This document shows, in pieces, positions 9,875-38,100 of a DNA stretch of 64,000 nt. The position numbers were made by a program, and so were the translations under genes. The notes below the pieces were generated by a model that saw nothing but the letters and a program-made list of their open reading frames with translations, made no database searches and was not told the DNA's origin. Position 1 is the first letter of the stretch; each line of letters opens with the position of its first letter. The DNA comes from an uncultured Chloroflexia bacterium (lineage in GTDB: Bacteria > Chloroflexota > Limnocylindria > Limnocylindrales > CSP1-4): the NCBI GenBank assembly GCA_963713075.1, contig CAVQKO010000013.1:81487-145486 (forward strand), read 5' to 3'.

Positions 9875-9898
9875 CCGGATGACGGGCCGTCATGACGG
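9875..9898. repeat. palindromic motif copy a (ccggATGACGGgCCGTCATGACGG)
   Basis: A perfect 7-bp inverted repeat, ATGACGG-g-CCGTCAT, overlaps the palindrome CCGTCATGACGG. It lies between the Cys-rich gene and yggT. Confidence 0.6.
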
Positions 9899-10004
9899 CA
9901 GAGCGTCCCAGGCGCTTACTGCGAGCACAGCATTGGCCGGAGTGTCGCCCGGCGACGGTCACCAGACCCCGCTTCCCCGGATGCCGAAGGCATGGGAGGC
10001 CATC

Positions 10005-10421
10005 ATGGCCATCGACCAGACCGACCGAACTGTCATCACCCAGGAGTCCACGCCGACAGGCCAGGAGTCGACGCGTATGGCGACGCGTCGCGTCACGGCG
10101 TCGGGCCCCGGCGGGGCCGAGACGGGCCGACGCATCATGGTCCTCGTCTTCGGGCTCGTCCAGATCGTCATCGGAGCGCGCATCGTCCTGCTCCTACTCG
10201 ACGCACGGGAAGCGAACGGCATCGTCTCCGCGGTCCTGAACATCAGCCAGGTGTTCGTGGCCCCATTCGAGGGCATGCTGCGGACGGACGCCCTCCACTC
10301 GGCGGGCACCACGCTCGACGTGACGGCCGTCGTCGCGCTCGTCGGCTGGACCGTCCTCGAGCTCGTCGCGCTCTGGGTCATCGGCATCTTCGCCCGCCGA
10401 TCGGCTGCGGCGGCCATCTGA
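10005..10421 (+). CDS. YggT-family membrane protein
   Basis: ATG at 10005 with GGGAGG 5 nt upstream. The product is hydrophobic ('IMVLVFGLVQIVIGARIVLLLLD...VFVAPFEGMLRTD...GTTLDVTAVVALVGWTVLE'), with YggT-like repeats. Confidence 0.6.
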   Translation: MAIDQTDRTVITQESTPTGQESTRMATRRVTASGPGGAETGRRIMVLVFGLVQIVIGARIVLLLLDAREANGIVSAVLNISQVFVAPFEGMLRTDALHSAGTTLDVTAVVALVGWTVLELVALWVIGIFARRSAAAAI

Positions 10422-10507
10422 CCACCTTCCCCATCGCGGACGGGAGCGATTCCCGCCCAGCCGCGCGGCCCGCGAACGGACGCCGCGCCACGAAAGGACC
10501 AGTCACC

Positions 10508-10777
10508 ATGGGCATCATCGCCTGGCTCGTGCTCGGCGCCATCGCCGGGTTCATCGCCAACCTGATCATGGGCGGAGGCGAGGGCCTCGTCATGATGGTC
10601 GTCCTCGGGATCGTCGGCGCCGTCGTCGGCGGCTTCGTCGCCGGGACCGTGCTCGGCATCGCCGACGTCACGGGCCTCAACGTGAGCAGCCTCCTCGTCG
10701 CCGTGTTCGGCGCGGTGATCGTCATCCTCGGCGCCCGGATCATCCGGCCGAGCGGCGTGAGCCGTGTCGCCCGATGA
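10508..10777 (+). CDS. GlsB/YeaQ/YmgE-family stress membrane protein
   Basis: ATG at 10508 with AAAGGA upstream. 'MGIIAWLVLGAIAGFIANLIMGG...GIVGAVVGGFV' carries the family signature. Confidence 0.75.
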   Translation: MGIIAWLVLGAIAGFIANLIMGGGEGLVMMVVLGIVGAVVGGFVAGTVLGIADVTGLNVSSLLVAVFGAVIVILGARIIRPSGVSRVAR

Positions 10778-10956
10778 GCGACCAGCACACCAAGGGTGCC
10801 GTCAACGAGGCCAAGGGCGCCGTGAAGGAGGCCGCCGGCAGGGTATCCGGCGACCGCAAGCTCGAGACGAAGGGCGAGGCCCAGAAGGTCCAGGGCAAGG
10901 TCCAGGGCCACATCGGAGTCGCCGCCGACGCCGTCTCTGGAGACCGCCACATCTGA
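10774..10956 (+). CDS. csbD: CsbD-family general stress protein
   Basis: ATGA overlap with the preceding gene. 'MSDQHTKGAVNEAKGAVKEAAGRVSGDRKLETKGEAQKVQGKVQG' is a CsbD repeat pattern. Confidence 0.75.
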   Translation: MSDQHTKGAVNEAKGAVKEAAGRVSGDRKLETKGEAQKVQGKVQGHIGVAADAVSGDRHI

Positions 10957-10965
10957 CCCGCGCGA

Positions 10966-11007
10966 GAGGTGCGGCGGCCATGCCGGTCGGTGTGGCCGCC
11001 GCACCTC
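10966..11007. terminator. bidirectional stem-loop terminator between convergent csbD and GH130 genes
   Basis: Perfect 15-bp inverted repeat gaggtgcggcggcca/tggccgccgcacctc with a 12-nt loop. Confidence 0.6.
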
Positions 11008-11095
11008 CGCATGGCCCTCGCCTCGACGGCCACCCGATCCCCGCCGTCGCCTCGTCCTGCCGCGAGGTGCCGCCGTCGCGCTCGAGGACTGTCGG

Positions 11096-12214
11096 TCAGC
11101 CCGATCGACGCAGGCGGGCCACTCCGATCCGCGAATCGGCCATGCCGTAGTAGACGTCGTAGGCGGCCGGTCCGTCCCCGTGAGCCGTCTCGATGGCCGT
11201 CGGGAACACGACCTCCGGGACGACCCCAGACCGCTCCTCCGCGAGCTCGGGCTCGAGTAGGGGCTCGGCCGAGCGGGCAACCACGTGCGTCACGTCGGCC
11301 GCGTCGAGGACGAGCGCCCCCGCGCTGTAGCGCAGGTCGGGCGGCGGGGTCAGGTCGCGAGTGGGTGTTCCCGAAGCTCCGTGGTAGAGGACCAGCCAGC
11401 CCTCCGCGATGCGGATCGGCGGCGTGCCGCCCCCGATCTTCAGGCCTTCCCATGCCTGCTCGGGGAGGGCCACCAGGCGGTGCCCCCCGAGGCGGGCCAG
11501 GGCGCGCAGGTCCGCCTCGACCGCCTCCGCGGCGACGAAGCTCACCCAGATCCCGGGACGCGTGTCCGTCAGCCCCGCGGGCAGCGACTCGTCCTCGCCT
11601 GGGCGGCCGAGCGAGAGGTCCCAGATCGGGCGGTGGAGCATGGCGTAGGCGGGCCTCCCGTCCGGGCCCGCGACGGGCTCTGGGAACAGGAGCGCGTCCT
11701 TGTTCGGGTACAGGTTCAGGTCGGTGGCCAGTCCGGGATCGTAGGCGAACGAGACCGGGCCGAGCCGCTCCCACCGTTCGAGGTCGGCGGATGCGGCGAG
11801 GCCGATCCGCGGGCCGAACGGGCCGTAGGCGGCATAGGTCATGAGCCAACGGCCGAGCCGCGGCACGAAGGTGATCCGCGGATCCTCGACCCCGCCGCCG
11901 CCCGCGTGCACCTCCCAGGGTTCGCGCGGCTCGAGGACCAGGCCCTGGCGCTCGACGTCAACCGGGATCCCGGTCGGATTGAAGACGACCCGGGCGCGCC
12001 CGATGCGCGAGTAGTTGCCCGCAGCGACCATCCGGGGGAAGAGGATGACGTCCTCGCCCAGCCTCGCCGTCGCCGGGTTGAGCACGCCCAGCGCCTCGGC
12101 AGGGTCGCCGGCGATCGGTGACATCAGGAGGCCGAGCCGCTCCATGCGGAAAGGGAACGGAGCCGCGGCCCTAGGACCGGCGGCCCCGTCCAGGGCGACG
12201 GCCGGTTGCGTCAT
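11096..12214 (-). CDS. glycoside hydrolase family 130 (beta-mannoside phosphorylase-like)
   Basis: ATG at 12214 overlaps the upstream permease stop (ATGA). 'VFNPTG...EDPRITFV...YAAYGP' is the GH130 five-bladed propeller pattern. Confidence 0.85.
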   Translation of the reverse strand: MTQPAVALDGAAGPRAAAPFPFRMERLGLLMSPIAGDPAEALGVLNPATARLGEDVILFPRMVAAGNYSRIGRARVVFNPTGIPVDVERQGLVLEPREPWEVHAGGGGVEDPRITFVPRLGRWLMTYAAYGPFGPRIGLAASADLERWERLGPVSFAYDPGLATDLNLYPNKDALLFPEPVAGPDGRPAYAMLHRPIWDLSLGRPGEDESLPAGLTDTRPGIWVSFVAAEAVEADLRALARLGGHRLVALPEQAWEGLKIGGGTPPIRIAEGWLVLYHGASGTPTRDLTPPPDLRYSAGALVLDAADVTHVVARSAEPLLEPELAEERSGVVPEVVFPTAIETAHGDGPAAYDVYYGMADSRIGVARLRRSG

Positions 12215-13113: not shown

Positions 13114-13119
13114 CGTCGT

Positions 13120-14040: not shown

Positions 14041-14044
14041 CGCG

Positions 14045-15367
14045 TCAGTTCCCGCTGACGAGGGTCTTGATCTTGTCGGCCGCGGTCTGGAAGGCCTGGT
14101 CGACCGGCGTCTTGCCGAAGATCACCGACGAGGTGTAGGCGTCGCGGAACGTCTGCCACATCTCGACAGAGTTGGCCACGCTCGGCACCTCGACCGTGCG
14201 ACTCGCCTGGTCGGCGAAGGCGGCGTACTCAGGATGCGCCGCGAAGTAGTCCGGGTACGCAGCTGCGAGGTCCGTCCGCATCGGCATCTGGCCGGTCAGC
14301 GTGAGCAGCTGGCTGTCGCTGTCCTTGCTCGTGGTGAACTTGAGGAACGACCAGGCGGTGCCGAGATTCGTGCAGCTCGAGTACAGCCCGATCGACTTCT
14401 CGTCGCTGAAGGTGTGGATGTCGCCCGCTGCCATGCCGTCCTTGGTCGGCACCGGAACGGCTCCCCACTTGATCTTGTCGCCGTAGACCGCGATCGCCCA
14501 CGGCCCGACGATCGCCATGGCCGCCTTCTGGTCAGCAAAGGAATCGCCCTGGTACGCCTCGTTGGGGACGAGCTTCTGGTCGTAGAGGCTCTTCCAGAAG
14601 TTCGCGACCGCCAGTCCATCCGGGCCGTTGAACTGCGGGACGCCCCCCTCGACCAGCTGCTTGCCGCCGGTCTGGGCGATGAACAGCGGGTAGAAGTCGA
14701 ACCACGGCTGATAGAAGTCGGAGCTCGGCGAAGGCCAGATCGCCGCCTGCACCCCGCCCTTGGCCACGAGGGTCTTGGCGGTCGCGAGGAAGTCCGCGTA
14801 GGTCGTGAGCGGCGGGTTGTCCGTCGGCAGGCCGGCCTTGGCGAAGACCGTCTTGTTGTAGAAGATCATGACGGGGTTGGTCTTCCACGGCATCTGGTAG
14901 AACTTGCCGTCGGTGAACTTGTACTGGTCCGCGCGGGCACCGGTACGGGCCTCGATGTAGCTGACGCCGTCGGGGAAGGAGTCGAGCGCCACAAGGCCGC
15001 CCTGCTTCTCGAACTGGGGCACGGCCGCCGGCGACGTGTTGTAGATCAGGCACGGGGTGTTGCCGGCCGTGATCGAGGCGCCGATGACCTCCTCGGAGCT
15101 CTTGCCCGCGGGGATCTGATCGCCGGTGACCAGCTGGTCCGGGTGGTCCTTGTTCCAGGCGGCCACCATGGCCTCGCCCCAGGCGACCTCCTCGGCGTTG
15201 TTCGAGTACCAGATCTTGATCGGCCCGGTGGCGCTCATGGCGCTCGCGGCGGCACTGCTACCGCCACTCGCGGGCGCGCCGCCCCCGCCGTTGTCGCTGA
15301 TGCACCCTGCGGTGAGCAGGACCAGGGCGGCGGCGATGCCGCCGACGCGGAGCCACGTGCGAGCCAT
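14045..15367 (-). CDS. ABC transporter sugar-binding lipoprotein (family 1 solute-binding protein)
   Basis: ATG at 15367 with GAGAGG 7 nt upstream. Signal peptide plus lipobox 'LLTAGC'. The length and composition are typical of a solute-binding protein. Confidence 0.85.
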   Translation of the reverse strand: MARTWLRVGGIAAALVLLTAGCISDNGGGGAPASGGSSAAASAMSATGPIKIWYSNNAEEVAWGEAMVAAWNKDHPDQLVTGDQIPAGKSSEEVIGASITAGNTPCLIYNTSPAAVPQFEKQGGLVALDSFPDGVSYIEARTGARADQYKFTDGKFYQMPWKTNPVMIFYNKTVFAKAGLPTDNPPLTTYADFLATAKTLVAKGGVQAAIWPSPSSDFYQPWFDFYPLFIAQTGGKQLVEGGVPQFNGPDGLAVANFWKSLYDQKLVPNEAYQGDSFADQKAAMAIVGPWAIAVYGDKIKWGAVPVPTKDGMAAGDIHTFSDEKSIGLYSSCTNLGTAWSFLKFTTSKDSDSQLLTLTGQMPMRTDLAAAYPDYFAAHPEYAAFADQASRTVEVPSVANSVEMWQTFRDAYTSSVIFGKTPVDQAFQTAADKIKTLVSGN

Positions 15368-15524
15368 GGCCATACCTCTCGTCTGCTGGGCGGCTTCAGG
15401 GAGAGCCATGGCGGCACCGCACTCGGCGAGCTCCGCGCGGCGGCTGCGCTCCTGAACCTCCTCACCCTTCCCGCCAAGCCAGGCAGTTGAAGGGACACGG
15501 CAAGTGTCGCGTAGGCCACCCTGG

Positions 15525-15545
15525 CGTCATTACGACCCGTCATGG
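15525..15545. repeat. palindromic motif copy g (degenerate: cGTCATtaCGACccGTCATGg)
   Basis: Shares the GTCAT...GTCATG core. It lies immediately 3' of the PRC-barrel remnant and about 160 nt upstream of the sugar-operon start. Confidence 0.4.
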
Positions 15546-15719: not shown

Positions 15720-15742
15720 CCGGATGACGCACCTTCATGACG
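15720..15742. repeat. palindromic motif copy h (ccggATGACGcaccTTCATGACG)
   Basis: Matches the consensus. It sits upstream, on the minus strand, of the PRC-barrel remnant. A 7-bp GGCTCGC sequence flanks it on both sides. Confidence 0.5.
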
Positions 15743-15905
15743 ACGCGGGCTCGCAGAGCATGCTTGCTGGCGCACGGCGCGGTGCATCGACCTCGAGCGA
15801 CCCCACGATCTCTCCGCAGGGCGGGGACGCGACGCCGAGTCGATCGTCGCGCCCCATCGGGAAGGGGATCACGATGCAGATCGAACTCGCCACGGTGGTG
15901 GATCG

Positions 15906-16151
15906 ATGATGGGGTACGACTGGGCAGGCGGGGGCAGCTGGGTCTGGATGCTCGGCGGACTCCTGCTCGTGATCGGCGTCATCGTCCTCGTCGTCTGGGC
16001 GTTCACGAGGGGCTCGCGCGCTGGCGCGACGCCAACGCTGGGTCCGTCGGGCCCGAACGCGAGCCAGATCCTCAGTGAACGGTTCGCCCGCGGCGAGATC
16101 ACCGAGCAGGAGTTCGAGCACGCAAAGAAGGCCCTCGGCCTGGACCGATGA
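15906..16151 (+). CDS. SHOCT-domain membrane protein
   Basis: N-terminal transmembrane segment followed by 'SQILSERFARGEITEQEFEHAKKALGL', which matches SHOCT. Confidence 0.6.
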   Translation: MMGYDWAGGGSWVWMLGGLLLVIGVIVLVVWAFTRGSRAGATPTLGPSGPNASQILSERFARGEITEQEFEHAKKALGLDR

Positions 16152-16669
16152 CCAGGCGAGCGCCTCTCTGGCTCGGCCTCGGCCTCGTCGCAGCGGCGCT
16201 CGTCATCCTTGGGATCGGACCCGTCGCCGGCACGCTCGGACTCGCTGGTCCGGGCCCCCGGAACCCCGGTGGCCCCGGGTCGATGATGGGGGGTGAGCCG
16301 ACGGCCGGCACGATGGCGGATCCCAATTCGTCCGACTTCGTTCCGGGCAGTGCAGCAGCGCCGCGAACCGTCAGCATCCTCGCCACGGCGCAGCTGCGCT
16401 TCGTGCCCGACGCCGTGACCGTCAGGCAGGGCGAGACGATCACCTTCGAGGTGACCACGATGGGCCCGCTCACCCATGAGTTCATGGTCGGGCCGGCGGC
16501 CGACGTCGCTGCCGACAGACCGGGAACCCCCGAGATCGCCGATCTCGGGATGATGGACACGCAGTCACTGACGTACACGTTCGCGGGCCCGGGTCCCTAC
16601 GCCTTCGCGTGCCACGCGACGGGTCACTACGAGGCGGGGATGACGGGGACGGTCGTCGTCGTTCCCTGA
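16148..16669 (+). CDS. cupredoxin (blue-copper) domain protein
   Basis: ATGA overlap with SHOCT. Signal-peptide-like N-terminus. Cu ligands 'HEFMVGP ... ACHATGHYEAGMTGTVVVV' (His, Cys, His, Met). Confidence 0.7.
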   Translation: MTRRAPLWLGLGLVAAALVILGIGPVAGTLGLAGPGPRNPGGPGSMMGGEPTAGTMADPNSSDFVPGSAAAPRTVSILATAQLRFVPDAVTVRQGETITFEVTTMGPLTHEFMVGPAADVAADRPGTPEIADLGMMDTQSLTYTFAGPGPYAFACHATGHYEAGMTGTVVVVP

Positions 16670-19022: not shown

Positions 19023-19544
19023 CTACCGCGGCCCCCCGGCAGGGGTGGTGACGGCGGCCTTGTCGGCTTCGAGCACGGCGTTGATCTCGTCGGTCGCAGC
19101 AGCCGAGAGCGACGTCTTGATGACCTCGCCGCCGAAGGGCGCCAGCGCGGCCAGCGCCTTGTCCTCGGTCCACTTCTCGAGGAAGAGGACGAGCGCCGCG
19201 GTGCCGGGCTTGAGGACGTCCTGGGTCCGCTGGCGGAAGTCGTCCCTGATGCCCCAGCCGCGCATCGTTCCCAGGACGGCACCCCAGATGCCGCCGGCGA
19301 TGAGGCCGCCAATCGGGAAGAGGAAGAGGAGCCCGAACAGGAGGCCGAGGAAGCCGCCCATCAGCGCTCCAGAGCTCGTGGCCCCGGTCTTGGTCACCAT
19401 CTTGGTCTGGCCGTCGGCGTGCTTGACGACGACGGCGGCCCCGTGCACCTGCACGACCAGGTCGTGCTCGAGCTGGCCCACCACCGCGTAGGCCTTCTCC
19501 GCCGTGGCTTCGTCCGGATAGCCGATGACGACGAGATCTGCCAT
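19023..19544 (-). CDS. DUF1269-family membrane protein
   Basis: ATG at 19544 with GGAGA 7 nt upstream. 'MADLVVIGYPDEATAEKAYAVV...GALMGGFLGLLFGLLFLFPIGGLIAGGIWGAVLG'. Confidence 0.7.
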   Translation of the reverse strand: MADLVVIGYPDEATAEKAYAVVGQLEHDLVVQVHGAAVVVKHADGQTKMVTKTGATSSGALMGGFLGLLFGLLFLFPIGGLIAGGIWGAVLGTMRGWGIRDDFRQRTQDVLKPGTAALVLFLEKWTEDKALAALAPFGGEVIKTSLSAAATDEINAVLEADKAAVTTPAGGPR

Positions 19545-19745
19545 GGACTTGTTCTCCGTACTGGTCGTGCCTGTGGATGCGCGGCGCACGGCTGCGCGCT
19601 TCGCTGCACTGCGGGAGCGCTCCGCCGGCCCGGGCGGCTGGGCGAGTGCCGCGGCCGCCCTGCCTGGCCCCGGTCTGCGCCGGTGGCTGGCGAGATCGCA
19701 CACGCGACTCGCCTCCTCGTCCTTGAGTCTGTCGTCCCGCGCCTT

Positions 19746-19766
19746 GACGTCATGACGGCCCGTCAT
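19746..19766. repeat. palindromic motif copy b1 (GACGTCATGACGGcCCGTCAT)
   Basis: CCGTCATGACGG-type palindrome in the divergent DUF1269 / PRC-barrel intergenic region. Confidence 0.55.
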
Positions 19767-19825: not shown

Positions 19826-19848
19826 CCGGATGACGCGTCGTCATGACC
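19826..19848. repeat. palindromic motif copy b2 (ccggATGACGcgtCGTCATGACC)
   Basis: Flanked by the direct 9-mer TCGGACCGC on both sides. It lies about 165 nt upstream of the PRC-barrel start. Confidence 0.55.
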
Positions 19849-20013
19849 GCGCGGAGGTCGGACCGCACAGTGGCGATCGGACCACGGACCGCCCCTGTCT
19901 CCGGATCGAGCCTGCCGTGCTCGACTTGGGCGGTGGGGCGGGACCCTCGGCGGGACGCCGAAACCCATCAGGTGGAGGATCGGCCGCTTCAAACGTGCTC
20001 GGGAGATCCGCAC

Positions 20014-20478: not shown

Positions 20479-20536
20479 TCACGCGATCGTGTCTGGGCCG
20501 CGTCGGGGAACAGGGATGCGCAGGAAGAGACAGAGC

Positions 20537-21556: not shown

Positions 21557-21615
21557 GGGCGCATGGGCGCGCGTGTGGTCCAGTTCGACGATCACTGGCC
21601 CGGTCCGGTGGCCGC

Positions 21616-24063: not shown

Positions 24064-24124
24064 TGCGTGGCGCAGCCGGCACGGGACCTTGCGCGGAGCG
24101 TGGCCGCGCTGGACTCGGCGTCTG

Positions 24125-28742: not shown

Positions 28743-29755
28743 GCATCCCCACACGGGCCGATGCCGCAGCCCGGGAGCCCCTCTACCCCCTGCGCTTCGA
28801 GCCGATCTACGAGTACCGACTGTGGGGTGGCCGGCGGCTCGCTGACCTGCTCACGGCACCGCTCCCGGGCGACGGCCCGATCGGAGAGGCGTGGGTCCTG
28901 AGCGACCGCGACGACCACGCGAGCCGGGTCGCCAACGGGCCGCTCAAGGGGAGAACCCTCCGCGAGGTGCTGACGGCGTGGCCCGAGCCGATGCTGGGGA
29001 CGCTCGCCGGCCGGTTCTGCCGCTTCCCGCTCCTGCTCAAGTTCCTCGACGCCCGCGAGCTCCTCTCGGTCCAGGTCCACCCCGCAGATACGCAGGCGGA
29101 CGTGCTGCCAGCCGGGGAGACCGGCAAGACCGAGGCATGGGTCGTCCTCGAGGCGGCCCCGGAGAGTCGGATCTATGCGGGCCTCAAGCCCGGCACGACC
29201 GCCGACGACCTGCGACAGGCGGCCGCGAGCGGGGCCGTCGCGGACCGCCTCGCCTCCTTCGCCCCGAGGCCCGGCGATGCCGTCTTCCTGCAGGCCGGCA
29301 CCGTTCACACGCTGGGCGGCGTCGTGGTGTTCGAGGTCCAGCAGAACAGCGACGTCACGTTCCGCCTGTACGACTGGGACCACGTGGATCCGACGACCGG
29401 GCAGCCCCGTCCCCTCCAGGTCGATCGGGCACTGCGCTCTGTCGACTTCTCCCAGCATGCGCTCGGCCCGGTGGCACCGGTGGTGGAGGCGACGACACCG
29501 GTCGAGCGCATGCGCCTCTTCGATTGCGAGCAGTTCAAGGTCTGGCGCCTGCGCGGCGGCTCACCGTTCAGCGTCGGCGAGCCGGGCCTGCCGCGTGCGC
29601 TCGTCTGCCTCGAGGGATCAGGGAATCTGGGGCATTCCGGCGTGATGCACCCGGTGGGCCGCGGCGACGTCTGGCTCCTGCCGGCAGTGGTCGGGGCCTG
29701 CGAGTTGCTGCCCGACGGGAACGTGACGGTGCTCGAAGTGGGGCTCCCCGAATGA
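28739..29755 (+). CDS. manA: mannose-6-phosphate isomerase, class I (cupin)
   Basis: ATGA overlap with the upstream gene. 'GEAWVLSDRDDHASRV', 'LLLKFLDARELLSVQVHP', 'KTEAWVVLEA', 'GTVHTLGGVVVFEVQQNSDVTFRLYDWD'. Confidence 0.8.
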   Translation: MSIPTRADAAAREPLYPLRFEPIYEYRLWGGRRLADLLTAPLPGDGPIGEAWVLSDRDDHASRVANGPLKGRTLREVLTAWPEPMLGTLAGRFCRFPLLLKFLDARELLSVQVHPADTQADVLPAGETGKTEAWVVLEAAPESRIYAGLKPGTTADDLRQAAASGAVADRLASFAPRPGDAVFLQAGTVHTLGGVVVFEVQQNSDVTFRLYDWDHVDPTTGQPRPLQVDRALRSVDFSQHALGPVAPVVEATTPVERMRLFDCEQFKVWRLRGGSPFSVGEPGLPRALVCLEGSGNLGHSGVMHPVGRGDVWLLPAVVGACELLPDGNVTVLEVGLPE

Positions 29756-30507
29756 AGCAACTGATTGTCTTCGATCTCGACGGCACGCTTGCCGAGAGCA
29801 AGTCGTCCGTGGGGCCCGCGGTGGCGGGCTTGATCCACGACCTCCTCGGGATCGTCAAGGTGGCCGTCATCTCGGGGGGCAACTGGCCGCAGTTCGAGGA
29901 GCAGGTGCTCGCCGGCCTCCCGTGCGACGAGCGGCTGGCGAACCTGTCCCTGCTCCCGACGTGTGGGACGAAGTTCCTCCGCTACGACGACGGCAAGTGG
30001 GCCGAGATCTACTCGGAGGACCTCAGCCCGGCCGAGCGGCGCAAGATCATCAGCTCGCTGGAGCAGGCGTTCGACACCGCGGGGCTCACCGTCGAGCGGG
30101 TCTGGGGCGAGGTGGTGGAGGACAGGGGAAGCCAGGTCACCTTCTCCGCCCTTGGGCAGCAGGCCCCCCTCGACGCCAAGACCGCCTGGGACCCCGACTT
30201 CGCCAAGCGCCGGAAGATCGTCGGGATCCTCGACACGCTGATCCCCGAGTTCTCCGTCCGGATGGGCGGCGCGACCTCGATCGACGTCACCAAGCCCGGC
30301 ATCGACAAGGCCTACGGGATCCGCAAGCTCCGCGACACGCTCGGCATTCCGCTCAGCGACATGATCTTCATCGGCGACGCCCTGTTCCCGGGCGGGAACG
30401 ACTATCCGGCCGAGGAGGCAGGGGTGGACTCGATCCCGGTGAAAGGGCCCGAGGAGACCAGGCTGGTGGTCCAGACGATCATCGCGTGCCTGGCTCCCGA
30501 ACCATGA
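29752..30507 (+). CDS. HAD-IIB family hydrolase, phosphomannomutase-like
   Basis: ATGA overlap. 'FDLDGTL', 'ISGG', 'GDALFPGGNDY' and a cap resembling eukaryotic-type phosphomannomutase or sugar phosphatases. Confidence 0.7.
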   Translation: MKQLIVFDLDGTLAESKSSVGPAVAGLIHDLLGIVKVAVISGGNWPQFEEQVLAGLPCDERLANLSLLPTCGTKFLRYDDGKWAEIYSEDLSPAERRKIISSLEQAFDTAGLTVERVWGEVVEDRGSQVTFSALGQQAPLDAKTAWDPDFAKRRKIVGILDTLIPEFSVRMGGATSIDVTKPGIDKAYGIRKLRDTLGIPLSDMIFIGDALFPGGNDYPAEEAGVDSIPVKGPEETRLVVQTIIACLAPEP

Positions 30508-30604
30508 TCGCACCCGCGCCCGCCAGGACAGGCTTCGAGCTCCACCGCCTGGGGACTGTGATGGAGCTTGCTCGTACGGCGGCCAGAACAGGAAGGTCGC
30601 GATC

Positions 30605-33295
30605 ATGAGTCCGAAGGCAGTCGTGGCCGAGGCGAAGCCGGCGGCCACGCCGGGATCGAAGGACGACCTCAAGACGCTCCCCATGCCGGAGCTGCTGGCG
30701 AAGCTCGGGTCCTCGGCCGACGGCCTCACGCAGGCCGAGGCCCAGAAGCGCCTGGCCCAGTACGGGCCCAACGAGATCGAGGAGAAGAAGGACAACCCGT
30801 TCCTGAAGTTCCTGACCTACTTCTGGGGCCCGATCCCGTGGATGATCGAGGCGGCGGTCGTGCTCTCGGCGCTGGCCCAGCACTGGCCCGACTTCTTCAT
30901 CATCCTGCTGCTGCTGCTGGCCAACGCCGTGGTCGGATTCTGGGAGGAGCACCAGGCCGGCAACGCGATCGCGGCCCTGAAGGCCAAGCTCGCCGTCGAG
31001 GCCACGGCGAGGCGCGACGGGACGTGGGTGACCCCGCCGGCGCGCGAGCTGGTGCCGGGCGACGTCATCCGCCTGCGCCTGGGCGCGATCGTGCCCGCGG
31101 ACGCCCGCCTGCTCGCCGGCGATCCCGTCGAGGTGGACCAGTCCGCGCTGACAGGGGAATCGCTGCCGGCGACGCGCAAGCCCGGCGAGGCCGTGTTCTC
31201 GGGGTCGATCGTGCGCCAGGGCGAGATCGACGCGATGGTCTACGCCACCGGGGCGAACACCTACTTCGGCAGGACCGCGCAGCTCGTGCAGGAGGCGCAG
31301 ACCATCAGCCACTTCCAGCGGGCGGTGCTCAAGATCGGGGACTACCTGATCGTCCTCGCGGTGGCGCTCGTCGCCATCATCATCTTGGTCGCGCTGTTCC
31401 GCGGCGACCATATGCTCACCACGCTGCAGTTCGCGCTCGTGCTGACCGTCGCCGCGATCCCGGTGGCGATGCCGACGGTGCTGTCGGTGACGATGGCCGT
31501 CGGCGCGCGCAAGCTGGCCGGGCGCGAGGCGATTGTCACCCGCCTCGCGGCGATCGAGGAGCTCGCGGGCGTGGACGTCCTGTGCGCGGACAAGACCGGC
31601 ACGCTCACCCAGAACAAGCTGACGCTCGGCGACCCGTTCAGCGTGAGCGGCGTCCCCGGCGACCAGGTGGTCCTCTGCGCCGCGCTGGCGTCACGCGCCG
31701 AGGACAAGGACACCATCGACCTCGCCGTGCTGGGCGGGATCACCGACGACCAGGCCCTCAAGGACTACACGGTGGTCCACTTCCAGCCGTTCGACCCGGT
31801 CCACAAGCGCACCGAGGCCACCGTCAAGGGCCCAGACGGCAAGCAGTTCCGCGTCGCCAAGGGCGCGCCGCAGGTGATCCTGGAGATGTCAGCCGACGCT
31901 GGGAAGGTGAAGACTGCGGTCGACGGGGCGGTCGACGAGTTCGCGGCCCGGGGCTTCCGGTCGCTCGGCGTCGCCAGGGCGGGCAGTCGCGGCGACTGGC
32001 ACTTCATCGGCGTGCTGCCCCTCTTCGATCCGCCGCGCGACGAGGCCAAGGCGACCATCGCGAGCGCCCGCCAGATGGGCGTGGCGGTCAAGATGGTGAC
32101 GGGAGACGCCATCGCCATCGCCCGGGAGACGGCCGGCAAGCTCGGCATGGGGACCGACATCCTCGACGCCGGCGGCTTCGGCGACGCCAAGCACCACGAG
32201 ACCGCGCAGCTCGCGGCGTCGATCGAGCACGCCGACGGCTTCGCCCAGGTGTTCCCCGAGCACAAGTTCCACATCATCGACGTCCTGCAGCGGGGCGGCC
32301 ACATCGTGGGTATGACGGGCGACGGGGTGAACGACGCCCCAGCCCTCAAGAAGGCCGACTGCGGGATCGCCGTCTCGGGCGCCACGGACGCGGCCCGCGC
32401 GGCGGCCTCCATCGTGCTCCTGACGCCCGGCCTCTCGGTGATCATCGACGCGATCAGGGAGAGCCGCCGCATCTTCCAGCGGATGAACAGCTACGCGATC
32501 TACCGGATCGCCGAGACGCTGCGCGTCCTGCTGTTCATGACGCTCGCGATCCTGGTGTTCAACTTCTACCCGGTCACCGCGGTGATGATCGTGATGCTGG
32601 CGCTGCTCAACGACGGCGCCATCCTGTCCATCGCCTACGACAACGTCCACTACAAGCTCAAGCCCGAGGCGTGGAACATGCGCCTCGTGCTGGGCGTCGC
32701 CACCGTCCTCGGCGTCGCGGGCGTCGTCGCCGCGTTCGGCCTGTTCTATCTCGGCGAGCGCGTCTTCAACCTCGACCGCGACCACATCCAGACGCTGATG
32801 TACCTCAAGCTGTCGGTAGCCGGCCACCTGACGATCTTCCTCACCCGCACGCGCGGCCCGTTCTGGTCCATCCGCCCCGCGAAGGTGCTGCTCCTCGCCG
32901 TGTTCGGCACGCAGGCGGTGGCGACGCTGATCGCCGTGTTCGGCATCTTCATGACGCCGCTCGGCTGGGGCTGGGCGCTGTTCGTGTGGGCCTACGCGCT
33001 TGCCTGGTTCCTCGTCAACGACCGTGTGAAGCTGCTCGCGTACCGGATCCTCGATCCCACGAAGGAGCCGCTGCTGGCCAAGCGGCCGCGAGATCGGCGG
33101 CCGCAGATCGCCGCACGGGCATACGAGCTGTACCAGCAGAGAGTCCGCGGCGAAGGCCAGGCAGATCGAGACTGGCTCCAGGCGGAGCGCGAGGTGGGCG
33201 CGCCCGACGCCGAGGCGAGCCGCCCGGCCGAGCCCGCGCCCGACGCGACGCCTGACCGCCCGACCGAGCCTGCGCCAAAGGCCACAGCTCGTTGA
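30605..33295 (+). CDS. P3A-type plasma-membrane H+-ATPase-like P-type ATPase with C-terminal DUF2934-like tail
   Basis: GGAAGG upstream. 'CADKTGTLTQNKLT', 'GDGVNDAPALKKADCGIAV' and ten transmembrane segments. The C-terminal 'ARAYELYQQRVRGEGQADRDWLQAEREV' resembles DUF2934. Confidence 0.9.
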   Translation: MSPKAVVAEAKPAATPGSKDDLKTLPMPELLAKLGSSADGLTQAEAQKRLAQYGPNEIEEKKDNPFLKFLTYFWGPIPWMIEAAVVLSALAQHWPDFFIILLLLLANAVVGFWEEHQAGNAIAALKAKLAVEATARRDGTWVTPPARELVPGDVIRLRLGAIVPADARLLAGDPVEVDQSALTGESLPATRKPGEAVFSGSIVRQGEIDAMVYATGANTYFGRTAQLVQEAQTISHFQRAVLKIGDYLIVLAVALVAIIILVALFRGDHMLTTLQFALVLTVAAIPVAMPTVLSVTMAVGARKLAGREAIVTRLAAIEELAGVDVLCADKTGTLTQNKLTLGDPFSVSGVPGDQVVLCAALASRAEDKDTIDLAVLGGITDDQALKDYTVVHFQPFDPVHKRTEATVKGPDGKQFRVAKGAPQVILEMSADAGKVKTAVDGAVDEFAARGFRSLGVARAGSRGDWHFIGVLPLFDPPRDEAKATIASARQMGVAVKMVTGDAIAIARETAGKLGMGTDILDAGGFGDAKHHETAQLAASIEHADGFAQVFPEHKFHIIDVLQRGGHIVGMTGDGVNDAPALKKADCGIAVSGATDAARAAASIVLLTPGLSVIIDAIRESRRIFQRMNSYAIYRIAETLRVLLFMTLAILVFNFYPVTAVMIVMLALLNDGAILSIAYDNVHYKLKPEAWNMRLVLGVATVLGVAGVVAAFGLFYLGERVFNLDRDHIQTLMYLKLSVAGHLTIFLTRTRGPFWSIRPAKVLLLAVFGTQAVATLIAVFGIFMTPLGWGWALFVWAYALAWFLVNDRVKLLAYRILDPTKEPLLAKRPRDRRPQIAARAYELYQQRVRGEGQADRDWLQAEREVGAPDAEASRPAEPAPDATPDRPTEPAPKATAR

Positions 33296-33312
33296 CCGTG
33301 AAGGCTGAGACG

Positions 33313-33930
33313 ATGAGCGAAGCGCCTTCCACGACCTGCCTGTTCCTGGACATCGGCGGCGTTCTGCTGACTAACGGGTGGGATCACGAGGCCCGTCAAC
33401 GGGCGGCCACGAACTTCCAGTTGGACGCGGCCGAGACGGAGGAACGGCATCAGCTGGTCGTCGACACCTACGAGGAGGGAAGGCTCACGCTCGAGGCGTA
33501 CCTGGACCGGGTGATCTTCCATCAGCAGCGAACCTTCACTCGAGCGCAGTTTCAGCGCTTCATGTTCGCGCAATCCCACGCCTACCCCGAGATGCTCGAC
33601 CTGATCGCTCGGCTCAAGGTCCGTCACAGGCTGAAGATCGTCGTGGTGAGCAATGAGGGCCGCGAGCTGAACGAGCACCGGATCCGCACCTTCGAGCTGG
33701 CCGGGTTGGTGGATGCGTTCATCACCTCCTGCTTCGTCCACGTCCGCAAGCCCGACGCCGACATCTTTCGGCTCGCGCTGGACATTGCACAGGCGCCGCC
33801 CGGGAACGTGGTCTACATCGAGAACACCCCGATGTTCGTCGAGATCGCGGAAGCCCTTGGGCTTCGAGGCATTCACCACACGGATTACGAGACCACTCGC
33901 GCCAAGCTGGCCGCGCTGGGTCTGGCCTGA
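33313..33930 (+). CDS. HAD-IA family hydrolase
   Basis: 'CLFLDIGGVLLTNGWD...VVVSNEGRELNEHRI...VHVRKPDADIF...VVYIENT'. A TTG at 33292 would give a 4-nt overlap with the ATPase stop. Confidence 0.7.
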   Translation: MSEAPSTTCLFLDIGGVLLTNGWDHEARQRAATNFQLDAAETEERHQLVVDTYEEGRLTLEAYLDRVIFHQQRTFTRAQFQRFMFAQSHAYPEMLDLIARLKVRHRLKIVVVSNEGRELNEHRIRTFELAGLVDAFITSCFVHVRKPDADIFRLALDIAQAPPGNVVYIENTPMFVEIAEALGLRGIHHTDYETTRAKLAALGLA

Positions 33931-33999
33931 GGGGCACGCTCGGCCCGTACGACGCAAAGGCCGGGACTCCGCCGGTCGTGATCGGAAAGGAAGGCCACC

Positions 34000-34679: not shown

Positions 34680-35069
34680 TCAGGGACCGCGACTGCTCCC
34701 GCCCCGGCGGTCGAGGGCCGACTGCTCGTCGACGGTACGCTCGGCGAGCGGATCGGCCGCCAACCGGTCAGGCGGGATGGGGGCGCCGCTCTCGACGGAC
34801 TTGCCATACGTGCCCGCGTCGAGGCGCTGTGCTGCCCGGTCGGCTTCGAGCAGTCGGCCGCGCAGGCCGGCCGCGACGGCCATGGCGACTTCCTCGGCGG
34901 CCACCTCGGTGCCAGACTCCGAGGTGTCGCCAGCCTGCTGGCTCTGCAGGTCACCCTCGGCCCGCACGGCACCGTCGACGTCAGCGAGCGCCGACTCGAT
35001 GCGGGCCCGCTCCGCGGCCACGAGGCGGCGGGCGCGCGTGACATCGATGCCGTCCTTGTCAGCCATCAT
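34680..35069 (-). CDS. DksA/TraR-family protein lacking the Cys4 zinc finger
   Basis: ATGATG start with GGAG upstream. The C-terminal 'RLDAGTYGKSVESGAPIPPDRLAADPLAERTV' aligns to the DksA 'ADGTYGxCExCGExIpxxRLxAxPxAxxC' region with Cys replaced by K/S/A. Confidence 0.5.
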   Translation of the reverse strand: MMADKDGIDVTRARRLVAAERARIESALADVDGAVRAEGDLQSQQAGDTSESGTEVAAEEVAMAVAAGLRGRLLEADRAAQRLDAGTYGKSVESGAPIPPDRLAADPLAERTVDEQSALDRRGGSSRGP

Positions 35070-35270
35070 GCAACTCCGGCGTCGGCGAGGACGGGCCTCA
35101 CCGCCGCGATCGGCACCGTCTGCGCGAGAACGAAGTGCGCGGGGTCGAGCTGCCAGGGTGCCATCGCGTCTCCTTGTCGATACCTCCCCTGTGGCGAGTC
35201 GACGATGCCCGCGGATGGGGCTCGCGACAAGGGTGGGGTCCTCCTGGGCCCGGTCCAGTCTCCGACCGCG

Positions 35271-35293
35271 GGCGCACCGGGGTCATGACCGTC
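35271..35293. repeat. palindromic motif copy c (gGTCATGACCgtcCGTCATGACG)
   Basis: Two GTCATGAC palindromes, nested in a larger inverted repeat GGCGCACCGG...CCGGTGCGCC (35262-35309). It lies in the divergent DksA-like / cupin intergenic region. Confidence 0.6.
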
Positions 35294-35399
35294 CGTCATG
35301 ACGCGACACCCGGTGCGCCGCAAGATCCGATCGGCGGCATGGCGCCGGGCGCCCGTCGGGCGCCCGCCAGCGGCCGTGCCCGCCGAGAGCAGGTCCACC

Positions 35400-35786
35400 A
35401 TGGCGCTCAACGTCGACATCATCGGGGCCGCACGCGCGAACTCCAACTTCCGCAAGGTCCTCTCCACTGGCCCGCATGCCCAGGTCGTGGTGATGAGCAT
35501 CCCGCCCGGCGGCGAGATCGGCGCGGAGGCGCACGACCATCTCGACCAGGTCCTGGTGTTCGTGGATGGCGTCGGCATCGCACAGCTGGGCGGCGAGGAG
35601 AGCGCGGTCAGCGCCGGACGCCTCGTCCTCGTCCCGGCCGGCATGCACCACAACGTCGTCAACACCGGCACGGCCGACCTGCGGCTGTACACGATCTATG
35701 CGCCGCCGCAGCATGCCCCGGGCACGGTGCACCGCACCAAGGCTGTGGCAGACGCCGACGAGGCTGACCACTTCGTCCCGGCCTGA
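35400..35786 (+). CDS. cupin-domain protein
   Basis: 'VVVMSIPPGGEIGAEAHDHLDQVLVFVDGVGIAQLGGEE...LVLVPAGMHHNVVNTG' carries both cupin motifs. Confidence 0.7.
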   Translation: MALNVDIIGAARANSNFRKVLSTGPHAQVVVMSIPPGGEIGAEAHDHLDQVLVFVDGVGIAQLGGEESAVSAGRLVLVPAGMHHNVVNTGTADLRLYTIYAPPQHAPGTVHRTKAVADADEADHFVPA

Positions 35787-35839
35787 GCAATCCTCGGCGC
35801 CGATCTCGTCGGCGCGGGCCAGCAGAAAGGAACCATCCA

Positions 35840-36106
35840 ATGGGCATCCTCGCCTGGATCGTCATCGGTGCAATCGCCGGCTTCCTGGCCAAGACCATCA
35901 TGGGCTCCCGCGAGGGCCTCGTGATGACGGTCGTGCTGGGCGTGGCCGGCGGACTCGTCGGCGGCTTCATCGCGACCCGCCTCCTGAAGGTGGGCTCGGT
36001 GGACGGCGTCAACGTCGAGAGCGTCGCCATTGCCACTCTGGGCGCCGTGGCGGTCCTTGTCGCTGCAAGGCTGCTGCAGGGCTCGCGCCGACTCCGGCTC
36101 CGCTGA
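35840..36106 (+). CDS. GlsB/YeaQ/YmgE-family stress membrane protein (second paralog)
   Basis: AAAGGA upstream. 'MGILAWIVIGAIAGFLAKTIMG...GGLVGGFIATRLL'. Confidence 0.75.
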   Translation: MGILAWIVIGAIAGFLAKTIMGSREGLVMTVVLGVAGGLVGGFIATRLLKVGSVDGVNVESVAIATLGAVAVLVAARLLQGSRRLRLR

Positions 36107-36138
36107 GGCTCCCGCTCTCTCCGCTGAGACTCCCGCTC
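36097..36138. repeat. 21-bp tandem repeat x2 (TCCGCTGAGgCTCCCGCTCTC / TCCGCTGAGaCTCCCGCTCTC)
   Basis: Two tandem copies with one mismatch, beginning in the last codons of the glsB paralog. Confidence 0.5.
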
Positions 36139-36383
36139 TCGGCGGCGACGCGGCACCCGCCTGGACAGGTGGCTGGATCAGGTCGTCTCGTCGAGCGACC
36201 GAACCCCTCCCAGGTCGGCTCGTCCGCCTCCAATCACGAAGGCTCAGCCATCGCGCGCGTCGCGGCGGCGCACGCGGCTCGGCGAGTACCATCGGCACTC
36301 GTCAGGTCCGTTCGATCAGCCCTGCCGGACGACGGCCAACCCGTGGGATAATCCAAGCGCATCATCGAGTGCCTGGAGCAGCA

Positions 36384-37166
36384 GTGTCCGCGGACCCCAC
36401 GATCGAGCAGAGCACCGACGCGCGCCGCGCGCTCGTGCTCCACGACCGCGAGCTCGTCGTGGACCTGATCGAGCTGACGCTGAACCACGGCCTGTTCGTG
36501 GTGCGGGCAGCGCGGGACCTGGCCGAGGCCGACGCGATCCTGGCGGACTGGCACCCGCACCTCGCCGTCGTCGACATGGACCACGACGACAGCACGGCCT
36601 TGCTCGGGCACCTCGGGGAGTCGAACCGGCTGCGGGAGCGGACCACGCCGGCCCTCGGCCTGACCCGCCGCGGCGACCTGCGGACCAAGCTCCGCGCGTT
36701 CGACCTCGGGGTCGACGACATCATCACGGTGCCGTTCTCGCCCGAGGAGCTGCTCGCGCGCGCGATCGTCATCACCCGGCGGGCCACCGGCTCGGACCGG
36801 CCGATGGTGCCGACGATCCGCCTGGGCGAGATGGAGATCGACATCCTCGGCCGCGAGGTGCGCACCGGCACGTCCGTCATCCACCTGACCGGCATCGAGC
36901 AGAGCCTGCTGTACCTGCTCGCGAGCCGGGCCGGGCGCGTGGTGACGCGGGACGAGATCCTCGACGCGGTCTGGGGCACCGACTTCGTGGCCGAGTCCAA
37001 CATCGTCGACCGGCACATCCGCAGCCTGCGCATCAAGCTCCAGAACGACTACCGCCACCCGCGGTTCATCGCGACGGTCCCGGGCGGCGGGTACCGGTTC
37101 ATCCCGGTGTTCTCCAACACGGGCTGGGGCGGCAGCGGGCCGGAGGGCGAGCACCCGGCGCACTGA
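36384..37166 (+). CDS. OmpR/PhoB-family response regulator with atypical receiver (orphan)
   Basis: GTG start with GGAG upstream. A GTG at 36369 is also possible. The winged helix 'LTGIEQSLLYLLASRAGRVVTRDEILDAVWG...VDRHIRSLRIKL...GGGYRF' is intact. The receiver has 'HDRE' in place of the DD pair and 'TVPF' in place of KPF. Confidence 0.75.
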   Translation: MSADPTIEQSTDARRALVLHDRELVVDLIELTLNHGLFVVRAARDLAEADAILADWHPHLAVVDMDHDDSTALLGHLGESNRLRERTTPALGLTRRGDLRTKLRAFDLGVDDIITVPFSPEELLARAIVITRRATGSDRPMVPTIRLGEMEIDILGREVRTGTSVIHLTGIEQSLLYLLASRAGRVVTRDEILDAVWGTDFVAESNIVDRHIRSLRIKLQNDYRHPRFIATVPGGGYRFIPVFSNTGWGGSGPEGEHPAH

Positions 37167-37183
37167 CCGGCCGACGTCCGGGC

Positions 37184-37202
37184 ATGACGGACCGTCATGA
37201 CG
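37184..37202. repeat. palindromic motif copy d (ATGACGGaCCGTCATGACG)
   Basis: A 7-bp inverted repeat with a 1-nt spacer plus the CGTCATGACG palindrome. It lies 18 nt after the response-regulator stop and 95 nt before a small membrane ORF. Flanked by GCGCAC...GTGCGC. Confidence 0.6.
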
Positions 37203-37297
37203 CGCACCGTGCGCTGACGGAGTCTCTGAGGCATGCCGCCACCCACCGCCGCCCGTCGGGCGGCTTGCCGGCGCCGCGGCACTGACGGAGCCGTCCC

Positions 37298-37474
37298 ATG
37301 GCGACCCTTGCACGCCCCAGCGACCACGCGCCGGAGCGCATCCGCGACTTGCCTGCCGCGTCGCCGGTCACGCGGCGACAGTCGGCCGAGGCGGTCGGGC
37401 TGCTGGTCGGGCTCCTCCTCGTCCTCCTCGCGGTGGCGCTGAGCACCGGCGCCCCGATCGGCATCGGGCAGTGA
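37298..37474 (+). CDS. possible small membrane protein (58 aa)
   Basis: Not in the ORF track because it is under 60 aa. High third-position GC. The product ends in a hydrophobic helix (VGLLVGLLLVLLAVALS). Confidence 0.3.
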   Translation: MATLARPSDHAPERIRDLPAASPVTRRQSAEAVGLLVGLLLVLLAVALSTGAPIGIGQ

Positions 37475-37656
37475 GCGTCCGCTCGCCGGTCGTGCGCGCC
37501 GGGTTTGCCGATGCCGTGCCGCCCGTCGGCCCGGCGCCGCAGGAGGTGCCGGTGCTCCACGCGGCCGTGCGGAGTGCCGTGCTCGTGGCCCTCGCGGTCA
37601 TGCTGGTCTTCGTCCTGCTGCCGGCGCTGCTCGGCGCCGCCAGCCACGGGATGTAG
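37471..37656 (+). CDS. possible small membrane protein (61 aa)
   Basis: GTGA overlap with the preceding small ORF. C-terminal transmembrane segment 'VLVALAVMLVFVLLPALLGAA'. Confidence 0.3.
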   Translation: MSVRSPVVRAGFADAVPPVGPAPQEVPVLHAAVRSAVLVALAVMLVFVLLPALLGAASHGM

Positions 37657-37899
37657 GTAGCGACCTCCCTCATGGGCGCGGGCGGGCAGGCCGCCTTGCC
37701 AGTGCTCGGCGATGCCCGGTCGCGCCGGGCAATCGCCCTGCCGGCGGCCCATGATTGGCCGTCCGGTCATCGGACCCCGTCGCACGGACGGCGGCGCTGG
37801 CCCGGACCCGGTCTCCGGACCGTGGCATCCGGCCGGCGAAGCCCGGCGCGGCGGGGTCCCTCCACGTGTCGCCGGCCACGCACTGCGCGGACCCGAATG

Positions 37900-37921
37900 A
37901 CGCAGCGTCATGACGTCCCGT
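37900..37921. repeat. palindromic motif copy e (ATGACGcagCGTCATGACGtcc)
   Basis: ATGACG/CGTCAT inverted repeat plus the CGTCATGACG palindrome. It lies in the 620-nt intergenic region upstream of the ComB-like gene. Confidence 0.55.
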
Positions 37922-38082
37922 AGCGTCAGGTCCATCGTCGCTCGGGCCCGGCGGGACTCACTGACTGACAGCGATTTCAGCCGGGTGTTCCCGTTGCCGC
38001 CGGCCCGGGGCCGGGGCGCCTCGGGCGCCAGCGATGCGGCGAATCCGGGTCGCGCTGAAGGGGGCGCGTGCTCACCCCGCGG

Positions 38083-38100
38083 CGGACCGATGACGGACCG
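38083..38100. repeat. palindromic motif copy f (degenerate: ATGACGGaCCGCCATGG)
   Basis: One mismatch relative to copy d. Confidence 0.4.

Follow-up and report, generated by a model that had tools for sequence, protein, structure and literature searches.

A recurrent intergenic palindrome in a stress-gene island

We analysed a stretch of 64,000 nucleotides (nt) from an uncultured Chloroflexia bacterium of the Limnocylindrales (assembly GCA_963713075.1, contig CAVQKO010000013.1, positions 81,487 to 145,486), here called the window. Between 9.8 and 38.1 kb it carries nine intergenic sites with a palindromic motif of the form ATGACG-N3-CGTCAT(GACG). Genes were called by their G+C content at third codon positions (GC3) and annotated with Pfam. 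Around the sites lie genes for YggT-like, GlsB/Transgly_assoc, CsbD, sugar ABC, SHOCT, cupredoxin, DUF1269, PRC-barrel, DksA/TraR-like and cupin proteins, an OmpR-type response regulator, two small membrane open reading frames (ORFs) and ComB. This agrees with the gene list of an earlier description made from the letters alone (the sequence-only reading).

The window has a base composition of ~72% G+C over its whole length, and the motif is strongly overrepresented in it. With up to two mismatches, ATGACGGNCCGTCAT matched nine times, against 0.31 matches expected, and none of 100 shuffles reached nine. The pattern ATGACGNNNCGTCAT also gave nine matches (2.6 expected), the self-complementary CGTCATGACG five exact ones (0.15 expected) and the 19-mer ATGACGNNNCGTCATGACG, at up to three mismatches, 15 strand-hits (1.1 expected). 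All matches of every pattern reduce to the nine places listed in Table 1. The coding DNA of the window, with called genes covering at least 82.5% of it, contained no match even at up to four mismatches. The nine intergenic copies of the sequence-only reading are thus borne out, and its coordinates were correct to within a few bases except for 35271–35293, placed about 10 nt too far to the left, and 38083–38100. A possible tenth copy at about 39156 proved to be a lone ATGACG half-site with no partner.

The motif is directional. Its CGTCATGACG end faces the start of a gene 45–200 nt away, as judged from approximate gene calls. Several ORFs begin at the ATG within CGTCATGACG, and we considered this ATG as a leaderless start codon but rejected it, as the GC3 frame analysis places the real starts 45–200 nt downstream. 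The recurring peptide 'MTGRHD' is a by-product of the DNA motif. Both a PIN-domain toxin gene (1580–2005) and a cluster for homogentisate and leucine/acyl-CoA catabolism (40275–54474) are devoid of motif copies, so that the motif is confined to the stress island between 9.8 and 38.1 kb.

Conservation of the motif and its regulon in related genomes

When the exact 19-mer was scanned over one genome per species, at least 118 stretches matched. At least 67 of these are labelled as Chloroflexota metagenome-assembled genomes (MAGs), under the names 'uncultured Chloroflexia', 'Candidatus Limnocylindrales', 'Anaerolineaceae' and 'Chloroflexi bacterium'. The Chloroflexota stretches have 66–73% G+C, and several hold two to four copies per 8 kb. 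The other listed matches were scattered singletons, several of them coding coincidences. In a set of low-GC, mostly gammaproteobacterial loci, one reading frame through the motif was common to the set; it looks like YbaB. An actinobacterial origin of the window, implied by the operators that the sequence-only reading used for comparison, was considered at first, together with boxes of the DosR, BldD and Fur types. The scan pointed instead to a Limnocylindria-like member of the Chloroflexota, and it is the Chloroflexota MAGs to which the window proteins are closest.

We then surveyed the regulon in 69 related, motif-seeded 8-kb loci (individual loci are given as L numbers) by taking, for every site, the first acceptable ORF on its downstream side and clustering all called proteins. 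Placement was again non-coding, with 113 of 114 sites outside called genes. The recurring families, with the number of loci for each, were GlsB (16), YggT-like (15), GAF-GGDEF (9), CsbD (7), DUF1269 (6) and DUF4177 (6), and Pfam added PRC-barrel, Dps/ferritin, dodecin, ice-binding-like, VIT1, PAS-EAL, MscL, sugar-binding and DksA-like proteins and two small membrane proteins.

Many of the downstream genes are direct orthologues of the window targets. YggT-like genes follow promoters of the Site 1 type in L080, L020 and at least ten further loci, and the YggT-like proteins of the window and L080 share 78% identity. The motif precedes DUF1269 orthologues (78–85% identity) in L028, L069, L076, L087 and L103, and L077 holds one too. 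For PRC-barrel the same arrangement was found in L094 and L103, and for the DksA-like protein in L028, with more orthologues in L069, L076, L077 and L094. In L037 and L086 the motif stands upstream of ABC substrate-binding genes that are weakly similar to that of the window (~24% identity).

These results make it very probable that the motif is a conserved promoter element of a stress regulon. The sequence-only reading had proposed the operator of an uncharacterised regulator controlling a general-stress regulon. The regulon has held up, with the same motif kept upstream of orthologous stress genes across species in dozens of related genomes, but the free-standing operator has given way to a fixed part of a promoter, as described below. 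A literature search found no description of the motif, its strings matching only unrelated primers and eukaryotic cAMP response element (CRE) decoy sequences, and no general-stress regulator of Chloroflexota.

GAF-GGDEF diguanylate cyclases recur among the targets of the motif, and PAS-domain proteins occur as well (L023, L036, L072, L063, L088 and L120–L122, with PAS-EAL in L063). This hints at a possible link between the regulon and cyclic di-GMP (c-di-GMP) signalling.

Promoter architecture of the motif

A logo was built from 115 high-GC matches aligned on the 19-mer. No conservation was seen upstream of the 19-mer, and a second element, cAcAcT, appeared downstream at positions 37–42 (A38 in 78, A40 in 64 and T42 in 77 of the 115 sequences). 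This element, with the consensus sACACT, begins exactly 17 nt after the ATGACG of positions 14–19. The palindrome itself occupies positions 1–15 (ATGACG-N3-CGTCAT), and its pentamers ATGAC and GTCAT lie one helical turn (10 bp) apart. Positions 14–19 (ATGACR) match the TGAC core of the -35 box TTGACA. Since sACACT follows this third half-site at 17 nt, we read ATGACR as a -35-like box and sACACT as a -10-like box. The sequence-only reading had described three alternating half-sites, each about one helical turn from the next; the third of these behaves as a -35-like box, with the conserved hexamer 17 nt further on.

As a control for seeding bias, we collected 46 additional independent palindromes from the related loci and the window that were found by the 15-mer alone. 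In 39 of them (85%), both GACG (with at most one mismatch) and NANNNT at 16–18 nt were present in at least one orientation, against a background of 0.7% per orientation. Therefore, the -10-like element is not an artefact of seeding with the 19-mer.

The spacer measures 17 nt in 102 of 116 sites. Within the hexamer, position -12 is C in 68% and G in 28% of the sites (96% together), A occurs at -9 in 74% and C at -8 in 76%, with A kept at -11 and T at -7. Over the window and L001–L122, a T at -12 occurs at a single one of the 116 sites, compared with ~15% expected from base composition. Its scarcity hints at a sigma factor other than the housekeeping one or at selection against basal recognition. 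Positions 12–18 of the 19-mer are nearly invariant. By far the most variable position among 49 non-seed sites is position 19, where the change is mostly from G to A; this gives ATGACA and thus brings the box closer to TTGACA. In the window, NANNNT is found at the right distance in seven sites; the site at 9879 and its orthologues in L080 and L020 carry CTTACT in its place. With a transcription start 7 nt past the hexamer, the palindrome would span about -48 to -34 with its centre at -41, a putative class II activator position.

A linked response regulator as candidate binding factor

The island encodes a regulator of the OmpR/PhoB family (Table 1) with a Response_reg domain (PF00072, E = 8.9e-8) and a Trans_reg_C domain (PF00486, E = 6.9e-24). 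For the DNA-binding domain, a standard winged helix, the best PDB relatives are RpaA, KdpE, PhoP and MtrA (~E = 1e-24). In the receiver pocket Asp53 and Thr83 are kept, the Asp-Asp pair has become His-Asp and the otherwise universal Lys105 has become Val; both substitutions are conserved across the aligned set of retrieved orthologues. With His-Asp and Val105 in its pocket, the protein is an atypical member of the family. No histidine kinase adjoins its gene, and it is apparently an orphan.

Orthologues of the regulator, at about 63–88% identity, occur in 25 of the 69 clustered loci; no other gene neighbours the motif as often, and no other DNA-binding protein recurs near it. A tblastn search found matches above 60% identity, mostly at 72–88%, in 28 fetched loci. 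The 4.15-Mb chromosome OY969796.1 encodes a regulator that is 88% identical to that of the window. Among 30 loci with the regulator, there are about 22 in which a motif copy stands 3–150 nt past the regulator stop codon and faces a small membrane gene, as it does at 37184. The association also holds in the reverse direction: L119–L122 were picked via regulator orthologues instead of the motif, and all four carry three to seven motif-plus-hexamer sites within a few kb. The family is large, as metagenomes hold more than 120 clusters with at least 79% identity, and the regulator has diverged far less than the proteins of its targets. The recognition helix is near-invariant, even in a 72%-identity paralogue that spans it, and so is the motif. 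Because of this near-invariance, a test for covariation of helix and motif has no power.

From this linkage, we give a slightly better than even chance that the response regulator is the factor that would bind the motif. The sequence-only reading had listed it only as a neighbouring gene; it is now a specific candidate. Neither the NarL-type response regulator at 4878–5609 nor the GerE protein at 2854–3339 has orthologues in the motif loci, and we rejected both as regulators.

Some loci hold more than one regulator gene. A second copy is adjacent in L112 (72% identity) and in L065 (63%), and L004 has two copies at ~79% about 1 kb apart. In L119 a second OmpR-type regulator gene is located ~6 kb away, beside a gene with a Crp-type helix-turn-helix (HTH) domain.

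Proposed mode of action

In the proposed model, a family of promoters with the motif as its regulatory core serves a general-stress or dormancy regulon in a high-GC lineage of Limnocylindria-like soil Chloroflexota, to which the window belongs, through class II activation, with the response regulator as the most likely factor (probability roughly 60%). A regulator dimer would bind the pentamers ATGAC and GTCAT of the palindrome, whose centres are 10 bp apart and thus on the same face of the helix. The third half-site would be contacted by region 4 of the sigma factor and not by the regulator. It is offset from the second half-site by only 3 bp, so that one protein could not fill both at once, and this lack of joint occupancy fits the split into regulator and sigma factor. 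The bound dimer would abut sigma region 4 on the -35-like box and activate an otherwise weak promoter with no T at -12. We put the odds that the regulator acts by activation at about even.

Predicted targets in the window are the YggT-like/GlsB/CsbD genes, the sugar ABC operon, the SHOCT/cupredoxin pair, DUF1269, PRC-barrel with the carbon-metabolism/ATPase run behind it, the DksA-like gene, the cupin/GlsB genes and the two genes for small membrane proteins. The sequence-only reading had also counted a Cys-rich small protein among the genes beside the motif. Its 103-amino-acid (aa) ORF (9042–9353, minus strand) lies ~530 nt from the site at 9879, which faces away from it; it has no Pfam match, and the motif loci hold no orthologue of it. 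A role as a target is therefore improbable.

A more far-reaching version can be offered tentatively, at somewhat less than even odds. Here, an atypical, probably phosphorylation-independent orphan regulator of the OmpR family would be the master activator of the general stress or dormancy response in abundant, uncultured, Limnocylindria-like soil Chloroflexota. It would bind head-to-head to the inverted repeat at -41 of a dedicated class of promoters, whose -10 box, sACACT with no T at -12, would prevent basal expression. Beside SigB, RpoS and EcfG/PhyR, general-stress control would then have a fourth solution, one independent of sigma factors. The circuit may connect with c-di-GMP enzymes and with the two tiny membrane proteins encoded right behind the regulator.

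Several observations weigh against activation by the regulator. In most loci the regulator gene itself is not preceded by the motif, and its linkage could merely reflect the neighbourhood being a favoured target locus. OmpR/PhoB proteins usually bind head-to-tail direct repeats and not palindromes. That T is so rare at -12 could mean that a dedicated alternative sigma factor is at work instead of an activator, and the overlap with the -35 box is compatible with repression too. A generic scan for E. coli-type sigma-70 promoters and terminators found no sites in 35000–38400, which is why the promoter call rests on cross-species conservation and spacing. Two of the window sites also fit poorly. 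Site 8 has no credible ORF downstream, and its transcript would head for the 3' end of the convergent ComB gene. Site 9 lacks both the third half-site and a -10-like hexamer.

Alternative explanations

The sequence-only reading had also raised the possibility of a miniature interspersed element, that is, a mobile repeat akin to repetitive extragenic palindromic (REP) sequences that lands in intergenic DNA. The copies are indeed short and palindromic, two of those in the window have flanking direct repeats of 7–9 nt, and an 11-nt inverted repeat encloses one copy. The direct repeats TCGGACCGC and GGCTCGC and the GCGCAC/GTGCGC inverted repeats that had been pointed out are present, but they are site-specific, differ between copies and are not conserved in related loci. 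There are no shared terminal or target-site repeats. Nothing is conserved outside the 19-mer and the -10 hexamer, and the lack of a conserved element body in the cross-species logo excludes such an element. Moreover, the copies are oriented towards genes and, in species with proteins diverged to 55–80% identity, are found at orthologous promoters of the same gene families. We regard this idea as effectively refuted. An element acting at the RNA level, as a hairpin in the 5' untranslated region or as a terminator, has a similarly negligible probability. A short hairpin could form, and Site 7 starts 18 nt past a stop codon. The stem of the hairpin, however, would close a loop of only 1–3 nt with no run of T residues after it, and the scan of 35000–38400 contained no terminator-like sites. 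Rfam gave no match at the gathering score over the whole window and one sub-threshold match (E = 0.44) in 37600–38300. The conserved -10-like box downstream of the motif places the motif upstream of the transcript, and its strict conservation with no compensatory variation points to recognition of DNA by a protein.

The two remaining alternatives accept a promoter and differ in what reads it. In the one, the palindrome is an operator at which a dimeric repressor occludes the -35 box until stress relieves it; the repressor might be the response regulator or an unlinked protein, such as a Fur-like factor with 7-1-7 geometry or an XRE/BldD-like factor recognising TNAC-N5-GTNA. The palindrome does share 2 bp with the -35-like hexamer, whose TGAC core is almost invariant, which is unusual for activator-dependent promoters, as these are often poor in their -35 region. 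ATGACGG-N-CCGTCAT has formal 7-1-7 geometry, and stress regulons under repressors are well known (HrcA/CIRCE, HspR/HAIR, LexA, DdrO/RDRM). Nevertheless, we consider repression rather unlikely. Operators usually float with respect to the promoter, whereas the register is fixed in 85% of the independent sites; a hexamer with no T at -12 suggests promoters that are intrinsically weak; and no gene for a Fur, XRE or other repressor recurs near the sites. The other alternative dispenses with a separate binding factor: a dedicated stress sigma factor would read GTCATGAC(R) as its -35 and sACACT as its -10 box, with the upstream half of the palindrome as an accessory or UP-like element. The fixed 17-nt geometry, an unusual -10 box with T virtually excluded from -12, and the location of the most invariant part at positions 12–18 all speak for it. 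General-stress regulons with CsbD, GlsB, PRC-barrel, DUF1269 and Dps are under the control of SigB, RpoS or EcfG in other phyla. It leaves unexplained, however, the conserved twofold symmetry of the upstream half (positions 1–10), a half that serves as a second -35 box in only 3 of 131 sites. The motif resembles neither the known AAC...CGT consensus of extracytoplasmic function (ECF) sigma factors nor that of the SigB type, and no sigma gene recurs near the sites, with L119 and L120 each holding one ECF-like gene. Overall, we judge a dedicated sigma factor to be quite improbable.

Comparison with known systems

A precedent for activation by the regulator is HP1043 (HsrA) of Helicobacter pylori, an atypical, orphan and phosphorylation-independent activator of the OmpR family that acts on a pair of inverted hexamers over the -35 region (PMC8345958). 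Head-to-head binding of HP1043 has been proposed from a docking model and mutagenesis (PMC8345958). Both HP1043 and the window regulator combine an OmpR-family winged helix with a degenerate receiver and no obvious partner kinase, and the HP1043 sites and the putative sites of the window regulator both consist of two inverted hexamers about one helical turn apart over the -35 region. The sites themselves differ, being TTTAAG-5bp-CTTAAA at -26 to -42 for HP1043 and ATGACG-3bp-CGTCAT at a predicted -48 to -34 or so in the window. HP1043 also belongs to another phylum and serves essential housekeeping functions, whereas the window regulator is a candidate binder for a stress regulon.

PhoB and the pho box, the canonical case of activation by an OmpR-family protein through sigma region 4, share with the window the DNA-binding domain family and a site that replaces or abuts the -35 box, with the -10 box retained. 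The window half-site CGTCAT resembles the pho-box half-site CTGTCAT. However, the repeats of pho boxes are direct, have a period of 11 bp and bind a phosphorylated dimer head-to-tail, whereas the window has inverted repeats and a receiver that has lost Lys105. With class II promoters, such as those with CRP/FNR sites at -41.5 or lambda cI at OR2/PRM (centred at -42), the window would share a twofold-symmetric site, predicted to be centred at about -41, that overlaps the -35 box in a register fixed relative to the -10 box. The site differs from the CRP/FNR type in having 15 bp with TGACG half-sites instead of a 22-bp TGTGA-N6-TCACA, and no Crp/Fnr-family gene is consistently linked to the motif loci, the one seen being that in L119.

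In gene content, the regulon overlaps strongly with those of SigB (Firmicutes and Actinobacteria), RpoS and EcfG-NepR-PhyR (Alphaproteobacteria), sharing CsbD, GlsB/YmgE, PRC-barrel, DUF1269, Dps, DksA-like and small membrane proteins. Those regulons have alternative-sigma motifs (GTTT..GGGTAT; GGAAC-N16-17-CGTT); the window motif matches none of them and has a palindrome of the dimer type instead. The core TGAC-N5-GTCA formally fits the BldD box of actinomycetes, TNAC-N5-GTNA, although that box contains much less information, is bound by a c-di-GMP-responsive XRE-like repressor, and differs from the window in phylum and promoter register. No BldD-like gene was seen, and we treat this likeness as a lead only.

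A transcription factor-dependent promoter motif that defines a regulon is a well-known kind of element; what is new is so sharply defined a motif in an uncultured lineage. Limnocylindria-like Chloroflexota are common in soil and freshwater metagenomes, yet to our knowledge hardly any have been cultured, and their regulatory biology is undescribed. The 19-mer, the -10 box and a named candidate regulator make a stress/dormancy regulon predictable in hundreds of MAGs, and provide a handle for metatranscriptomics on which genes switch together under drought or starvation. The system is compact, with a regulator of 260 aa and a site of 15–19 bp. If the assignment of the regulator is true, general-stress control in this phylum would be built on a transcription activator and not on an alternative sigma factor.

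Individual sites

The nine sites differ in strand, spacer and completeness (Table 1).

Table 1. Motif sites and associated features of the window (positions count from its first letter)
Feature	Position	Strand	Sequence elements	Genes faced or content
Site 1	9879..9920	+	exact 19-mer ATGACGGGCCGTCATGACG (9879-9897), 17-nt spacer, CTTACT (9915-9920)	YggT-like gene, then GlsB and CsbD genes
Site 2	15503..15543 (19-mer 15525-15543)	-	ATGACGGGTCGTAATGACG, 1 mismatch, 16-nt spacer, GACACT	sugar ABC substrate-binding gene (14045-15409, -) and its operon
Site 3	15724..15764 (19-mer 15724-15742)	+	ATGACGCACCTTCATGACG, 1 mismatch, 16-nt spacer, CATGCT	SHOCT (15906-16151) and cupredoxin (16148-16669) genes
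Site 4	19726..19766 (19-mer 19748-19766)	-	exact 19-mer, 16-nt spacer, CAGACT	DUF1269 gene (19023-19544, -)
Site 5	19830..19871 (19-mer 19830-19848)	+	ATGACGCGTCGTCATGACC, 1 mismatch, 17-nt spacer, CACAGT	PRC-barrel gene (20014-20478) and co-directional gene run to ~33930
Gene run behind PRC-barrel	20014-33930	+		6PGD-like, GH15 glucoamylase, acetate kinase ackA, phosphoketolase xfp, class I aldolase, PMI, HAD proteins, P-type ATPase with DUF2934 tail
Site 6	35257..35326	both	bidirectional four-half-site element; half-sites at 35281-35303
Site 6, plus promoter	35285-35303 and 35321-35326	+	19-mer and CAAGAT (35321-35326)	cupin, GlsB and possibly response-regulator genes
Site 6, minus promoter	35281-35299 and 35257-35262	-	mirror copy and GAGACT (35257-35262)	DksA/TraR-like gene (34680-35069)
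Response regulator	36384..37166	+		atypical OmpR/PhoB-family response regulator, 260 aa; candidate motif-binding factor
Site 7	37184..37225 (19-mer 37184-37202)	+	exact 19-mer 18 nt past regulator stop codon, 17-nt spacer, GAGTCT	two small membrane-protein genes (37298-37474, 37471-37656)
Site 8	37897..37938 (19-mer 37897-37915)	+	exact 19-mer, 17-nt spacer, CATCGT
Site 9	38090..38104		palindrome only, ATGACGGACCGCCAT, 1 mismatch; weakest copy

Sites 4 and 5 form back-to-back promoters for the DUF1269 and PRC-barrel genes. The gene run behind Site 5 looks like one long unit for carbon metabolism under stress or dormancy. In L068 the PMI orthologue has a motif copy of its own.

Site 6 is bracketed by a perfect 11-nt inverted repeat, GGCGCACCGGG / CCCGGTGCGCC (35271–35319), which was unseen at the other sites. 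Site 8 may yield a non-coding or antisense RNA (region 37897–38276); the fold of the region downstream of the site gave z = -0.6 and no evidence of structure. Site 9 may be a degenerate relic or a copy for binding only.

In the 5' leader of the YggT-like gene downstream of Site 1 (9925–9960), the stretch GCACAGCATTGGCCGGAGTGTCGCCCGGCG is conserved at the DNA level in related MAGs (L080, L020 and L018). It falls in different reading frames in different genomes, so that its conservation is not protein-coding; the stretch may form a small leader hairpin (GCCGG...CCGGC).

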